Origin: Escherichia phage RB49 | Direction: 5' to 3' (one strand) | Sequence record: NC_005066.1 | Length of the DNA stretch: 64,000 nucleotides | Shown: piece after piece, positions 47,009-62,324 of the stretch | How the letters are laid out: the number at the start of each line of letters is the position of its first letter | Position numbering within the stretch: the first letter of the stretch is position 1 | Made by a program: the position numbers and the translations under genes | The notes under the pieces: generated by a model | What the model was told of the DNA's origin: nothing | The model's input: only the letters and a program-made list of their open reading frames with translations | Databases searched by the model: none

Positions 47009-47492
47009 ATTTTGCTAAATCATTGCAATATTTTAGTGCCTTAGTTTGAAATTCTGCGCTGTTAAGTTCTTCATAACGGTCATAATCACCGTTTAATGCT
47101 GCCTTTCTTGCTTCTTGCTCTATCTGCATGTCAGACATGATAATACAGCGATCCCGCGCTTTCATCTTCTCAAGTTGTATAGACTCTTCTTTCTGCTTGC
47201 GCAATTCTTCTTGACGCTTCTTTTCTTCTTGTGCTTTCTCTTCCCGCGCTTCTTTGATTGCATCCTTGAACATCTGCGTTTGTGGTGCTAAACCAACTTT
47301 AACTCGATCTACGTCTCGACGTTCCATTTTAGAAATAAAGCATGATTCGATCTGATCATCACTTGCATATGCTGCTTTACATTCACGAAGCAAGAAAACC
47401 GGATCTGATTTAGCATTCATCATAGCTTCCATGTTGGCACAACCAGTAAGCATGAATACAGCCGCAAGACCAATCAGTTTAATCATTTTCAT
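47007..47492 (-). CDS. putative lipoprotein (signal peptide with LTGC lipobox, charged coiled-coil body)
   Basis: N-terminus MKMIKLIGLAAVFMLTGC; stop overlaps start of upstream ART gene. Confidence 0.6.
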   Translation of the reverse strand: MKMIKLIGLAAVFMLTGCANMEAMMNAKSDPVFLLRECKAAYASDDQIESCFISKMERRDVDRVKVGLAPQTQMFKDAIKEAREEKAQEEKKRQEELRKQKEESIQLEKMKARDRCIIMSDMQIEQEARKAALNGDYDRYEELNSAEFQTKALKYCNDLAK

Positions 47493-48313
47493 TTAGTCAC
47501 CTCACCGAAAATTGTAAATTGTCTACGATTCTCATCGCCGAAAGATTCTACTACGTCGTTTACCTTGACGCAAGTCCCGCGCGGTAAAATTACTTCACAT
47601 TCGCAAGGGTTCCATGCAATGGACCCAACAACAAAACCTTTATGATCTTTTACGTCAATTACCCATGATACATTACAAGAATGTTGCATCTTTCCGGTCA
47701 TTGATTCATATCGATTCTCACAATAAAGGCTAGTGCTGTTTGATAGCCATCCTCCAAAGATGATCGGTGTCATGCTGGTTGACACAAAGTTTTTAAAGGT
47801 AAATTCCTTATCTTCAATAATACGCTCTATTGTCTGAATGTCAAGATGTTGACCGCGATAAAGAGTACCGTTTAACTTTTCGGTTTTATCCATGACGCAA
47901 TCCATCAAATCAACAATCTCTGATATCTCATCGGTCATGTCTTCTTCCCCTAAGAGAGCACCATTTACCCATTCGTATTGCTCAGACACATAATCACAGA
48001 TTGCATTATATTCTGCTGGTGTTATGTTGTTATGTTTGTAATGTTTGAATACATTATCTCCAAAGTCTTCGGAGTGTACTTCATACATCACATTAATGAT
48101 TTTCTTGACAAATCCATAATCTTGTGTCTCACGCTCAAGGAAGCGGATAACCTTCACATAATCATCAAAGTTAATCTGATCGCTGATCATCTCAGTGATC
48201 ATGTAACCATTAATCCCCTCAATGTCATATGTTTCAATATAATTGTCCATACGTTCCATCATTGATTCGCGTGATTCTTCCGAAAGACGAAAATCCTGTA
48301 ATTTCTTGAACAT
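47489..48313 (-). CDS. ADP-ribosyltransferase, Alt-like short paralog
   Basis: R-S-E triad motifs LYRG, FVSTS, ECEVILPRG colinear with those of the 683 aa Alt; GGGAGG RBS. Confidence 0.7.
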   Translation of the reverse strand: MFKKLQDFRLSEESRESMMERMDNYIETYDIEGINGYMITEMISDQINFDDYVKVIRFLERETQDYGFVKKIINVMYEVHSEDFGDNVFKHYKHNNITPAEYNAICDYVSEQYEWVNGALLGEEDMTDEISEIVDLMDCVMDKTEKLNGTLYRGQHLDIQTIERIIEDKEFTFKNFVSTSMTPIIFGGWLSNSTSLYCENRYESMTGKMQHSCNVSWVIDVKDHKGFVVGSIAWNPCECEVILPRGTCVKVNDVVESFGDENRRQFTIFGEVTK

Positions 48314-48390: not shown

Positions 48391-50442
48391 TTACATTTTA
48401 AATTTATCTGGCATTGCGTCTACAGATACCAGATCAGCGATAAGCTGACGTAGAGTTGCCTTATCTGCTTTCTTACGTTCGGTTTTAGCTTCGCTAATGA
48501 AGCTGGAGAAAGACAGGTCAGAAGCAGGTTTAACAACACCTTCACGGATGAATGCATCACCGTCCGCGATCATCTCGCCAGATTCTTGTAATGCTGCCAG
48601 TTCATTTTTGTTCATAATATGTGCCTCAATGTAATAAGTTTCTTGTGAATCCGTCGATGCCGTAGCACGAGTTACCGTATCAAAGGATAACACAACACCG
48701 CGAGGAAGTAAAATCTCGCATTCTTTGTAAGCAAATGCTTTGTTACCTACTGGCAAGACAGGGATGTTTTCCGCGCCAGCAATGGAGAAAGCAACATTGG
48801 CGCCACCTTCACCGCGAGAGCCAGCCATAGAATCAACACCAGCAACGGCACTAGCCACGTTTGCATTCCAGCCGCCAAAAATGTTAGGTGCAAGGGAAGT
48901 GCTCACATAGTTTTTAAAGTAAAACGCTTTTTGCTTACGTGCAGTTTCCCACATTTGCGACCGGAAGTCCATACCACGATACAGAATAGTACCCGGATCA
49001 AGTTTAACGCCATAGTTGGAGAAGGCATTATCCAGTGCATCGCACATCTTGACCAATTCTTCTGGATCTGATATGCCTTCAAACTCTTCCAGCTTGCGGT
49101 CGGTTAGGAAGTTGTTCATATTGATGTATGCTGCATCGGCATATTCGCTCAACACAAAACCTTCCGCGCCTGGCAGATCAAGATCAATATCTGCCATCAT
49201 TTCACCCATGTTGCTAGCAATTGCTTCAAACATACCGGAAGCAACATTACGTAGGGCATCGGTTTTAATCTGGGTGATATGACTACGCAGCATTTCAGCT
49301 TTTACATCTGCTGGCATAGACTGGTCTACTCGATCCATTGCCAGGGCGGTGATCTTGTTTTCGAATACTTCCTCGCTCATGATTTCTTTTAAGCGTTTGA
49401 CCGAGGCTGCGATAACTTCCGCAGACAACGGATCATATTGATCCTGAACTTTTACCAGTTCGCTTACTGCGTATTTTGCATCGGCTTCGCTTTCAAAAAT
49501 AGTACGCATGAAACCATAGCGAGTGATAATATCACTTGTCCAGTCATTCAGAGAACGGGCGGTTGAACGTTCTAAGGCTTGACGGTCAATCAGAGTATTA
49601 AACTGTTTCTTAGGTTCGGCTTCGGTGATATCTTCTTCCGGTTTAAGATTAATTTTTTCTGGATGATTCACATAGTCGCTGTTATAGGTCGCTTGAGTTT
49701 TCAGCATTTCTTCTTTAGTCAAACGAGATTTAGCCGCTACGCGTTGTTCTGCTTCCGCGTTTCGTTCTTCTTCTGACACAAGACTAGCCGCATACGCTTC
49801 ATCTTTAGTCAGAGATTCACCAGTAGCCTTAGATACCCAGCGATCACCTAAATCACTTTCTACTTTAGTGAACAAGGATTCATCAAGTTTAATCCCTTTA
49901 ATCTTATCAATCGCCATCCCGCGACGCTTGACAACAACTAAAGCGATCTTTTTGCTGGTCATTACTTCCTGCTGGAATACTTCAAACTTCGGTGTACGAC
50001 GCACCAAACGCTCTATAACGCGCTTAACCAGTTCGGTCTTACCTTTCATGCGGGATACGTTAAAACGGAACATAACAGCGTCTAATTGCGATTTACGGGC
50101 TGTTTCCATAACCACATCAAAAGCACTTGCCATGACTGCAATCGGGTTATCGCCTAGACCATTTTTAAGCTGTACAATACGACCGCTTTTGTTCATTTCG
50201 CACAGTACAACATGTGCGGTCTTGTCACCCATACGAATGATTTTAGGTGTTTTGTTGGTGAAGTTACAAAGACGGACAATCACATCTTTATCGCGTGTCT
50301 GTACTGCAAAAAGCTGTTTAGGATTCTGCTTAGGCTTTAAGCACTGTACCGGAGCAATACTGCCAAAGTTTTCTTCCTCTTCCGTCAACAGCCATTTCTC
50401 GAAAGATTCAATCATTAGATCGTCGATTTCTAAGTTAAACAT
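48391..50442 (-). CDS. alt: Alt ADP-ribosyltransferase (packaged host-takeover enzyme)
   Basis: 683 aa (T4 Alt 682 aa); motifs ILYRG, YVSTS, KECEILLPRG; position next to gene 54. Confidence 0.85.
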   Translation of the reverse strand: MFNLEIDDLMIESFEKWLLTEEEENFGSIAPVQCLKPKQNPKQLFAVQTRDKDVIVRLCNFTNKTPKIIRMGDKTAHVVLCEMNKSGRIVQLKNGLGDNPIAVMASAFDVVMETARKSQLDAVMFRFNVSRMKGKTELVKRVIERLVRRTPKFEVFQQEVMTSKKIALVVVKRRGMAIDKIKGIKLDESLFTKVESDLGDRWVSKATGESLTKDEAYAASLVSEEERNAEAEQRVAAKSRLTKEEMLKTQATYNSDYVNHPEKINLKPEEDITEAEPKKQFNTLIDRQALERSTARSLNDWTSDIITRYGFMRTIFESEADAKYAVSELVKVQDQYDPLSAEVIAASVKRLKEIMSEEVFENKITALAMDRVDQSMPADVKAEMLRSHITQIKTDALRNVASGMFEAIASNMGEMMADIDLDLPGAEGFVLSEYADAAYINMNNFLTDRKLEEFEGISDPEELVKMCDALDNAFSNYGVKLDPGTILYRGMDFRSQMWETARKQKAFYFKNYVSTSLAPNIFGGWNANVASAVAGVDSMAGSRGEGGANVAFSIAGAENIPVLPVGNKAFAYKECEILLPRGVVLSFDTVTRATASTDSQETYYIEAHIMNKNELAALQESGEMIADGDAFIREGVVKPASDLSFSSFISEAKTERKKADKATLRQLIADLVSVDAMPDKFKM

Positions 50443-59659: not shown

Positions 59660-60133
59660 TTACTCCTTATTTTCTCGCTCGTACTTTTCGAAATAAAATT
59701 CTACTGGCTGGTCATGAATTGACAGCAAGCCAAAGCGTTTAGCCGCTCGCAATCCCATATTGCGCTGAATGTACTTCTGGAAGTTCTCGCGTATACACTT
59801 ACGCCAGTATTCTAAGCCCATACAGCTTTTATAAAGATTGCATTGCACACACGCCGGATTCATGTTATCAAGTATATCATGTTCCGGTTTATGCATTCCT
59901 ACAACCTTATACTTCCACGATCCATCATCATTACGGGCAATTCGTCCATTTTCATCATAGACTACCTTTGAGCGTCGCAATACTGGTTTGATGTGGTCTG
60001 CGTGCCAGCGATCCCCTAGTTCCTCGCCACAATAGGCACAACGTCCACCATATTTCATTTTCAGGATCTGGCGTTGCTCTTTCTTTGACAATTTTTTAGG
60101 TTTAGGGGCTTTCGCCCCTTCATTATCACACAT
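59660..60133 (-). CDS. HNH endonuclease
   Basis: CAYCG ... HADHIKP ... N ... CVQCN HNH motif; start overlaps ligase stop. Confidence 0.7.
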   Translation of the reverse strand: MCDNEGAKAPKPKKLSKKEQRQILKMKYGGRCAYCGEELGDRWHADHIKPVLRRSKVVYDENGRIARNDDGSWKYKVVGMHKPEHDILDNMNPACVQCNLYKSCMGLEYWRKCIRENFQKYIQRNMGLRAAKRFGLLSIHDQPVEFYFEKYERENKE

Positions 60134-61628
60134 CGAATACCTCTTTTACTGTATTTGCAGTGGTCTTGTCGTAGCGAATACGTTTGATGATTGGGAGAAA
60201 TAAAGAGAACTCCGGTTCATCTTCTTTACGTGATTTGCTGCGGATATACCCGTTGCATGTCATCTCAATGACTTTTCCAATCAGGTTATGACGGTCAGTC
60301 CATAACATTTCTCGGTCGAGTTCATTTCGACGATCGAACGGAATTACACGTTCAGTACCATCATCACCTTTTTCGGTTGTAGTGTCGGTTAATCCCGATC
60401 CGGTGTTAGTCATCATTCGTCCGCACGCACTACGGACAGTAAAACCGCCTACCTTATTGGGGTCTTTACTATGCGGATATACATCAACAATTTCCGCGTC
60501 GAAGTCAATCACTTCTTTAAATTTAACCTGATCTTTACTACGGCGATCTTCAAATACACCATGTAAATTTTTAAGGATAATACCTTCTAAGCCCATGTTT
60601 ACATAGCGATGATATACTTCGCGAGCTTCATCTATATTGTTAACTACAGTGTTTTCGATTATCTGAACACGAGGATCGTTAAGTTCTTCAACAATCTGTT
60701 TTAGTTCTTCGAATCGATCTTTATATTGCTTCGTTGCTTTCTCATTTCCGTAATACACATCACGGTCGATAACATCCCAGACAGTATAAACAATACATTG
60801 GGCTTCTTCTTTTGGAATAGTTCCTTTAAGTGATTTGTTGAGGATACCATTTCCAGTCTGACGGTCTGCAACAACGGATTCTTTCACTGCTTCCGCTACT
60901 GGCGTTAATGGCATTTCCTCTTCTTCAAATATCCATGACAGAGTACCATCATAAACGCTCTCAACGAAGTTCTGCGCTGGTGTTTGCGAAAGGGTAGGCA
61001 TATATACCAATTCGCCATCTAGAACAATTCCACGGCCTCGTAGACGCTCTAAAACCGCAAACAAATCATCAAGCCCTTGATAGGTATTACCTGAGCGGGT
61101 ATAGATTGCTAATGTTTCCCCGTCAATATCAGCCATACCACGAGCGCCATCGCTTTTAAGTTGTGCATACGCCGGATATTTGATATTGGCAATGGTCTTA
61201 TCAGAACATGACGATGCAAGGTGGCACGGCTGCTGGGGGATCAGTTTCTTCCATACCTTGTTTGCAGTGGTAGCGGAACAACCGCATTCCAGGTCACGAT
61301 TCAGGACCATCATTGCAACTTTAGCATCATCTTCTGACAAGCAAGTCAGAGTATCGGTAACTAGCTGTAATGCTGCATTACCAGTTACTTGACGTGTTGC
61401 AAGTTTATTTTTAAAGACCTGCAATGCACCGGATAAAGACAATACAGACGAATAGCGAGACGGTTTATCGTATTTCTTTACGCCAAACGTAACCTGTTTG
61501 CAATATGCCAGATAAAAGCATTCTTTCAGCGTTTCATTGCTCGCGGATTCTTTCAGAATCTTTTCTTTCAGCGATGTTTTGTCTGTTGCTGCAAGCTGAT
61601 TAATGATATTAAGAATTGACATTTTCAC
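60126..61628 (-). CDS. 30: ATP-dependent DNA ligase gp30
   Basis: 500 aa; adenylation motif I LKSDGAR (KxDG); position between gp31 region and alt as in T4. Confidence 0.9.
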   Translation of the reverse strand: MKMSILNIINQLAATDKTSLKEKILKESASNETLKECFYLAYCKQVTFGVKKYDKPSRYSSVLSLSGALQVFKNKLATRQVTGNAALQLVTDTLTCLSEDDAKVAMMVLNRDLECGCSATTANKVWKKLIPQQPCHLASSCSDKTIANIKYPAYAQLKSDGARGMADIDGETLAIYTRSGNTYQGLDDLFAVLERLRGRGIVLDGELVYMPTLSQTPAQNFVESVYDGTLSWIFEEEEMPLTPVAEAVKESVVADRQTGNGILNKSLKGTIPKEEAQCIVYTVWDVIDRDVYYGNEKATKQYKDRFEELKQIVEELNDPRVQIIENTVVNNIDEAREVYHRYVNMGLEGIILKNLHGVFEDRRSKDQVKFKEVIDFDAEIVDVYPHSKDPNKVGGFTVRSACGRMMTNTGSGLTDTTTEKGDDGTERVIPFDRRNELDREMLWTDRHNLIGKVIEMTCNGYIRSKSRKEDEPEFSLFLPIIKRIRYDKTTANTVKEVFDV

Positions 61629-62088
61629 CTCGTTTTGTTAAACGTTCACGAATATCATTGAGGATACTACAAAATTCCGATTCAGTCAATATAGTCTTTA
61701 ACGGATCAGTTCCACCTATGCTATGACGTAATTTCTTATTTCCGGTCGCGAGTAATGCTTTACAAAATTCTGGGTTATTCCGTGCCATCGTAACAAATGC
61801 CAGATGTACCAGTCTGTAATAATGCTCACTCATTCGATGAATCGGGCGACCCTGAAAATATAACATGTGATTCTCAATCTTTTCAGTTCTTCCGGTTCTT
61901 TTTGCTTTGCCGCCGTGCATCAAAAAGATTTCTCTTTGTCTCTGAGGGTTCTTAAATCTTAGCCCCTGTAAAAATCCTTCTGTGCTGTTAATATCGCAAC
62001 CAAATAGACGGAATGGTCTTTTATTGAAATTACTCAATTCACCCGATGGATAAGGTCCACCCGCATAGATATCAATTTCAGAAGTCAT
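61609..62088 (-). CDS. NADAR (YbiA-like, DUF1768) domain protein
   Basis: GELSNF...PF...STEGFLQGLRF ... LLATGNKKL in NADAR order; 159 aa. Confidence 0.55.
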   Translation of the reverse strand: MTSEIDIYAGGPYPSGELSNFNKRPFRLFGCDINSTEGFLQGLRFKNPQRQREIFLMHGGKAKRTGRTEKIENHMLYFQGRPIHRMSEHYYRLVHLAFVTMARNNPEFCKALLATGNKKLRHSIGGTDPLKTILTESEFCSILNDIRERLTKRGENVNS

Positions 62089-62242
62089 TGAAACTAATCT
62101 CGCTAATCAGAGAGAACGGATCATAATCGTCATTAGGAATATCGATAGTAATCGAATGAGGATTTACCCATACACCAAACTGGTCTTCTTCGGTGAATAC
62201 TTCGGTATGGATTTCGTGGATGTTTACATTCATAGTTTTCAT
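62078..62242 (-). CDS. small hypothetical protein (54 aa)
   Basis: ATG at 62242; overlaps NADAR gene start by 11 nt. Confidence 0.3.
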   Translation of the reverse strand: MKTMNVNIHEIHTEVFTEEDQFGVWVNPHSITIDIPNDDYDPFSLISEISFNDF

Positions 62243-62324
62243 AATAAAATTCCTTAATAATCAATAACTTACAAAATCATATAGCCAAAATATAGGCGGG
62301 ATTATTTCCCGCCGTTTAAAATAA

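Follow-up and report, generated by a model that had tools for sequence, protein, structure and literature searches.

The open reading frame (ORF) at positions 61609-62088 of the 64,000-nt stretch of Escherichia phage RB49 analysed here (the window; sequence record NC_005066.1) is, judged by its sequence, the Krischvirus (RB49-group) copy of T4 gp30.3/AdfN (anti-DarT factor NADAR), a stand-alone ADP-ribosylglycohydrolase with the NADAR fold. By analogy with the T4 protein, its product, called 30.3 below, probably hydrolyses guanine-linked ADP-ribose (ADPr) on phage DNA and so counters DarT1-type toxins. We describe its orthology and fold, the catalytic Glu and His and the C-terminal helix that it keeps, and a Lys-to-Arg change in the active site. 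An earlier note on this DNA had singled out the ORF as NADAR-like without recognising it as gp30.3, and its idea, including the context of phage ADP-ribosyltransferases (ARTs), is already in print.

61609..62088, minus strand: coding sequence of the 30.3/adfN ortholog; 159 amino acids (aa) plus stop; single-domain phage NADAR, predicted guanine-ADP-ribose DNA glycohydrolase.

The ORF runs from an ATG at 62088-62086 to a TAA at 61611-61609 on the minus strand. Every motif on which the NADAR suggestion had been based is present in the translation: GELSNF (residues 16-21), PF (25-26), STEGFLQGLRF (35-45) and LLATGNKKL (112-120).

Membership of this protein in the gp30.3/AdfN subfamily of NADAR proteins is close to certain. 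The window DNA is 97-98% identical to that of phages Cognac, Sf20 and JSE of the RB49 group (genus Krischvirus), and the 30.3 product is 100% identical to a protein annotated gp30.3 in an RB49 GenBank fragment. It matches Pfam family PF08010 (Phage_30_3, 'Bacteriophage protein GP30.3') over profile positions 2-138 of 138 at 132.5 bits (cut-off 36, E=1.2e-38), and PHROG 652 with E=2.5e-45. In BLASTP, T4 gp30.3 is 38% identical (E=2e-30) in a full-length alignment that spans residues 3-150. Homologs occur in 1508 phage records, with at least 80% coverage in 1500/1508, and a library of 1.8 billion proteins contains 973 cluster representatives of the family at E<=1e-3. The gene is full-length in 58 close relatives and differs from that of JSE at three nucleotides, all synonymous. 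The Pfam score, the homolog counts and these silent differences show that the ORF did not arise by chance.

The proposed profile match to NADAR/YbiA fell short with the Pfam model and held with a profile of the family. Against the Pfam NADAR model PF08719 the protein scores 15.5 bits (cut-off 35.1, E=0.021), below the gathering threshold; Pfam models gp30.3 as a separate family, and some relatives reach 27.3 bits on PF08719. A profile of 86 family members finds YbiA of E. coli (2B3W) with E=5.6e-4 and the Phytophthora NADAR (8BAU, PnNADAR) with E=0.23, the SNF and E-x3-Q-x2-K motifs being in register with both. An AlphaFold2 model on the family alignment (mean predicted local distance difference test score 96.8) has the five core helices and small flanking sheets of the NADAR fold. 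Foldseek searches of the PDB returned YbiA (E=1.3e-5) and 8BAU (E=1.8e-3) and no others below E=3, and among predicted viral structures the fold matches begin with phage proteins of the gp30.3 type and continue with proteins that carry a NADAR annotation. Together, the fold search and the family profile matches make the NADAR fold secure despite the sub-threshold Pfam NADAR score. A single-sequence phmmer search of PDB sequences found no NADAR; its top match was the C-terminal part of DltA, a D-alanine carrier-protein ligase (7vhv, E=3.8e-4), with a weak echo from the NCBIfam DltA model. We rejected this similarity as chance, since it disappears with the family profile, for which YbiA is then the top match, and the fold searches gave no adenylation-domain match.

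In an alignment of 168 relatives, to which all conservation counts refer, 14 residues are near-invariant (L18, S19, N20, F26, S35, E37, Q41, Q51, G59, R85, H122, G125, T132 and L134), and all are present in 30.3. The main conserved elements map to the window as follows.

62026..62037, minus strand: codons of LSNF (L18-S19-N20-F21), the near-invariant N-terminal NADAR motif; L in 155, S in 158, N in 160 and F in 122 of 168.

61957..61980, minus strand: codons of the active-site helix E37-G-F-L-Q41-G-L-R44; E in 162/168, Q in 156/168.

61723..61725, minus strand: codon of H122, the subfamily-defining His, just past the last beta-strand (residues 119-121 in the model); H in 161/168.

61615..61683, minus strand: codons of the C-terminal alpha-helix, residues 136-158; a high-confidence helix in the model.

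LSNF of 30.3 lines up with FSNF of YbiA, and E37 aligns with the catalytic Glu, E36 in T4 and E43 in PnNADAR. Both E37 and H122 are kept, and the phosphate-binding Lys is replaced by R44 (codon 61957-61959). This position, seven residues after the Glu, corresponds to K43 of T4, K95 of the E. coli C7 protein and K50 of PnNADAR; the column holds K in 151/168 and R in 11/168. Relatives bearing Arg include several lineages 39-44% identical to the query, each of which keeps the E, Q and H, and among eight aligned phage genera Arg is found only in Krischvirus and its nearest relative, Acinetobacter Lazarusvirus. Within the C-terminal helix E138, F139, L143 and R147 are nearly invariant; the helix, which is lost in the inactive RB69 allele, is intact in 30.3.

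What such a protein does is known from T4. The gp30.3 proteins constitute the 'phage NADAR' subfamily, whose last strand carries His in place of the Glu of YbiA and the Asp of DarG1 (Schuller et al. 2023, PMC11543638; Cihlova et al. 2024, PMC11125620), a description that both papers trace to de Souza and Aravind 2012. Acting on DNA in vitro, purified T4 gp30.3 hydrolyses guanosine-ADPr and leaves thymidine-ADPr intact (Cihlova et al., PMC11125620); the guanosine activity is supported also by PMC12945103, in which all four NADAR families are reported to strip G-ADPr from RNA too. Johannesman et al. renamed the protein AdfN (preprint PMC11257639; Nat Commun 2025, PMC11825919) and found it necessary and sufficient for T-even phages to resist DarTG1 (PMC11257639, PMC11825919). 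Their preprint reports that purified T4 AdfN removes ADPr from DNA, that E36A and K43A inactivate it, and that a natural frameshift deleting the C-terminal helix leaves the RB69 protein inactive (PMC11257639). A transposon-sequencing preprint gave independent confirmation: T4 can do without adfN on K-12, and the gene becomes conditionally essential on DarTG1 hosts alone (bioRxiv 10.1101/2025.11.20.689424). NADAR genes of T4-like phages are early genes that occur along with ARTs (Iyer et al. 2022, PMC9503650). The 2024 preprint had also proposed that T4 AdfN prefers hydroxymethylated DNA (PMC11257639), a proposal withdrawn in the published version, where an additional T-even co-factor was suggested instead (PMC11825919); AdfN protects T4-GT7, whose cytosine is unmodified (PMC11825919). 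Cytosine is unmodified in RB49 DNA as well (PMC4041780). Since AdfN is active in T4-GT7, the unmodified DNA of RB49 is no obstacle and an AdfN ortholog in this phage is unsurprising, and we dropped specificity for hydroxymethylated DNA as a source of interest in it.

From the T4 ortholog and the NADAR structures we infer both the activity of the RB49 protein and its anti-DarTG1 role. Upon infection of a DarTG1 host, the DarT1 toxin would ADP-ribosylate guanine in phage DNA and block replication. The phage enzyme would bind the ADPr with the diphosphate held by the basic residue at Glu+7 (R44) and the distal ribose positioned by E37 and H122; hydrolysis of the N-glycosidic bond to guanine would restore unmodified DNA and allow replication to proceed. 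Protection against DarT-like host defences, one of the two roles imagined for this gene from its sequence, is by homology the right one, as it has been demonstrated for T4 gp30.3/AdfN (PMC11257639, PMC11825919, PMC11125620).

Several points weigh against this assignment. By sequence, the protein is only 38% identical to its characterised T4 counterpart, and its PF08719 score is below threshold. T4 AdfN itself attains its full effect only in the course of a T-even infection, and an extra phage factor may be required (PMC11825919), and our literature search found no paper combining Krischvirus and DarTG. The one reason not to carry the T4 function over with full confidence is R44 at the position where T4 has an essential Lys, whose Ala mutant is inactive; in the DarG1-NADAR of E. 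coli C7, K95R keeps hydrolysis in vitro and loses the rescue of cells from DarT1 (PMC11543638). Such behaviour, together with the replacement of a residue kept in 151/168 relatives, would fit an attenuated or re-targeted Arg variant in the RB49/Lazarusvirus clade, either a weak anti-DarT1 factor or one directed at another source or substrate of guanine-ADPr. The targets of a re-directed enzyme could be RNA, in line with the RNA G-ADPr removal reported for all four NADAR families (PMC12945103), or the products of guanine-specific toxins such as ScARP/pierisin- or YarT-type ARTs, and a YbiA antitoxin does exist for an ART unrelated to DarT (PMC11125620). We consider the attenuated or re-targeted variant improbable, and the same holds for these targets. 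Arg recurs in several separate lineages with the E, Q and H intact, from which we argue that the substitution is tolerated and the protein functional under apparent selection, and the gene is full-length in its close relatives with only synonymous changes relative to JSE. There is nonetheless an outside chance that the Krischvirus/Lazarusvirus AdfN clade, with its Arg variant and in phages that lack 30.2, is functionally shifted: it might neutralise DarT1 in uninfected cells without a T-even co-factor, or its preference might have moved to a different guanine-ADPr substrate, for instance RNA or what non-DarT guanine ARTs produce. If true, the Arg variant would offer a natural handle on the in vivo specificity of NADARs.

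Two further explanations place the substrate outside phage DNA, and one of them involves the two ARTs to which the earlier note had drawn attention. Both ORFs are real and match PF03496 above threshold.

48391..50442, minus strand: Alt-like ART, 683 aa; PF03496 E=1.8e-9; annotated alt in JSE.

47489..48313, minus strand: second, shorter ART, 274 aa, adjoining alt; PF03496 E=4.3e-16; annotated ADP-ribosyltransferase in JSE.

These genes are encoded within the same leftward-transcribed region as 30.3, so that 30.3 could be imagined as an eraser of the phage's own marks, removing the ADPr set on host proteins or RNA by Alt, its Alt-like paralog or Mod-type enzymes; on chemical reasoning alone, arginine-ADPr and guanine-N2-ADPr are alike in having an N-glycosidic bond to a guanidine-like nitrogen. 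However, about 11 kb and roughly 30 small ORFs separate the ARTs from 30.3, 30.3 homologs of other T4-like phages stand in unrelated contexts, and nothing ties the Alt-type enzymes to 30.3. Furthermore, adfN is not needed by T4 on K-12, DarTG1 fully explains the phenotype known for it, and the activities of T4 gp30.3 are on guanine-ADPr in DNA and, by report, in RNA, with none on thymidine-ADPr; the literature contained no test of T4 gp30.3 on protein-Arg-ADPr that we could find. The idea of an eraser that regulates the phage's own ADP-ribosylation therefore found no support, adfN being essential in T4 only with DarTG1 (bioRxiv 10.1101/2025.11.20.689424), and we regard it as very unlikely. Even less room is left for an enzyme that processes soluble ADPr derivatives or metabolites, whether immune signals or reactive ribosyl intermediates of the kind handled by YbiA in riboflavin metabolism, in place of DNA. 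Soluble ADPr derivatives were proposed to be the main targets of phage NADARs (Iyer et al. 2022, PMC9503650), riboflavin intermediates are substrates of the YbiA-type NADARs, which are N-glycosidases (cited in PMC11125620 and PMC9503650), and the fold match of 30.3 to YbiA equals in strength that to the ADPr-bound NADAR. The proposal, however, is older than the experiments on DNA de-ADP-ribosylation by gp30.3 and on its anti-DarTG1 role, and 30.3 belongs to the His subfamily and not to the Glu (YbiA) subfamily. Removal of guanine-linked ADPr from phage DNA, as in T4, remains the explanation that we favour.

The immediate surroundings of 30.3 contain three further features.

60126..61622, minus strand: gene 30, ATP-dependent DNA ligase; PF01068 E=2.8e-22.

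62078..62242, minus strand: 31.-1 (the name in the RB49 record), a small acidic ORF of 54 aa; its stop and the 30.3 start lie in an 11-nt overlap.

62295..62313, minus strand: terminator-like G+C hairpin, followed by a T-rich tail, separating gene 31 from the 31.-1/30.3/30 cluster; from a consensus scan only.

As had been noticed, 30.3 stands beside the DNA ligase gene. It is directly upstream, and its 3' end overlaps the ligase ATG (61622-61620) by 14 nt (GAGGTGAAAATG), an overlap that is identical in the JSE annotation and suggests translational coupling. The ligase is a neighbour of 30.3 and at most a putative functional partner. ORF 31.-1 has no Pfam match and no detectable family, and it resembles none of the ORFs that precede 30.3 in T4, Lazarusvirus, Muldoonvirus, Kanagawavirus and Innesvirus. 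A small conserved partner gene in translational coupling with 30.3 might have supplied the additional T-even factor; we rejected this candidate because the upstream ORFs of the six phage genera are dissimilar. The hairpin at 62295-62313 reads GGCGGGA-AATAA-TCCCGCC; the count of terminator-like sites in the region is not above that in shuffled sequence, no convincing promoter follows the hairpin, and the promoter scan was uninformative (14 sites against 14.4 expected). Composite promoter/stem-loop (PeSL) motifs are known from RB49-group phages. Directly downstream of the ligase gene, and overlapping its stop by 8 nt, lies an HNH endonuclease ORF of 157 aa (PF01844, 59660-60133, minus strand), which is probably a mobile homing-type insertion. 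Krischvirus relatives vary around this ORF, with megablast matches broken into 2-4 pieces in several genomes.

The gene order cd-31-(rIII)-30.x-30 is common to T4, JSE, Lazarusvirus and Muldoonvirus, and 30.3 occupies the matching place; Krischvirus is without the intervening genes 30.1 and 30.2. Elsewhere the location differs. In two T4-like phages, Klebsiella phage Shark_ER15 (locus L007) and Enterobacter phage IME523 (L010), the AdfN homolog lies inside a tRNA gene cluster and not near ligase, which indicates that the gene has moved between hyperplastic regions; its surroundings include nrd genes in an Aeromonas phage, and a helicase gene adjoins it in a Rhizobium phage. These other contexts led us to reject ligase adjacency, mentioned in the earlier note, as a functional link: it reflects the conserved T4-type gene order and no conserved functional link. 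A chemical link would not be expected either, since removal of ADPr from guanine N2 should leave no nick. We likewise rejected gp30.2, encoded downstream of 30.3 in T4, Lazarusvirus and Muldoonvirus, as a conserved partner, because it is absent from the window; gp30.2 as the T-even factor for AdfN would be pure speculation.

Some observations concern gp30.2 and the wider family. The gp30.2 proteins of T4, Acinetobacter Lazarusvirus and Serratia Muldoonvirus are 45-52% identical (L001 1475-2311; L005 2976-3638; L006 3674-4441), and an N-terminal DxDG motif suggests a HAD-type phosphatase or nucleotidase. A gp30.3-type domain is also found in larger proteins (P0024, P0039, P0076, P0058, P0061, P0019 and P0021). 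A recurrent architecture of ~470 aa has a hydrophobic N-terminal region of ~320 aa that is apparently a multi-pass membrane segment, and other proteins are a fusion to a calcineurin-like phosphoesterase, a fusion to BspA-type leucine-rich repeats, and tandem duplications; the N-terminal regions of the larger proteins have no Pfam match. In Rhizobium phage P9VFCI (NC_070886; L009 2501-2962) an AdfN homolog of ~38% identity that keeps the E, K and H bears the name 'p10VF-like homing endonuclease', probably a misannotation.

The 30.3 gene thus belongs to a kind of phage counter-defence gene that experiments have already characterised, and is not new. In the records that we examined, the gene and its homologs are labelled 'hypothetical protein', gp30.3 without a function, or, in one case, 'homing endonuclease', and we suggest relabelling them as AdfN-family anti-DarTG1 ADP-ribosylglycohydrolases. 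A prediction follows for the RB49 group, whose phages are phage-therapy candidates: they should resist DarTG1. The remaining question is a modest one, namely whether the behaviour of T4 AdfN is matched by a natural Lys-to-Arg variant of the active site whose phage has unmodified DNA. NADARs are all active in vitro and yet differ in vivo, a difference that published work leaves unexplained and to which the Arg variant could speak.

Several known systems invite comparison with 30.3. T4 Tk.4/AdfM, directed against DarTG2, and AdfA (gp61.2) are likewise phage counter-defence proteins against DarTG systems, but their folds are unrelated: AdfM is a macrodomain acting on thymidine-ADPr and AdfA a DarT1-binding inhibitor. 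Neither has a homolog by tblastn in the 64-kb window, which is ~40% of the genome. YbiA (2B3W) and the Phytophthora NADAR (8BAU) share ~20% sequence identity with 30.3 and have Glu in place of H122; YbiA is tied to the hydrolysis of riboflavin intermediates and to swarming, and gives no protection from DarT1 in vivo. DarG1, the DarT1-linked antitoxin of the BC4488 family (Geobacter lovleyi 8BAT, E. coli C7), has Asp in the last strand where 30.3 has His. Unlike DarG1, 30.3 is an orphan: no DarT1 partner stands beside it, its neighbours being the 54-aa ORF without a family and the ligase, and the sole ARTs in the window are the Alt-type PF03496 enzymes ~11 kb away. It also consists of the core only, 159 aa with homology from residue 3-5 and no N-terminal extension, and T4 AdfN, unlike DarG1, does not neutralise DarT1 in uninfected cells. 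AdfN-Bas32 and AdfN-Bas60, from T5-like phages and Vequintavirinae, are, like 30.3, orphan phage NADARs, and they counter DarTG1 by guanine de-ADP-ribosylation; they belong to other, independently acquired NADAR clades and are active without T-even infection (PMC11825919), whereas 30.3 falls in the gp30.3 clade. The closest counterpart is T4 gp30.3/AdfN. The RB49 gene differs from it in having R44 for K43, in lacking 30.1 and 30.2 and overlapping the ligase gene, and in residing in a genome with unmodified cytosine. The two are single-domain PF08010 orthologs that align over their full length (159 aa here, 152 aa in T4); the C-terminal helix, the catalytic Glu and the His of the subfamily are kept, and both genes occupy the same place in the cd-31-30 order and share the direction of transcription of the ligase gene.

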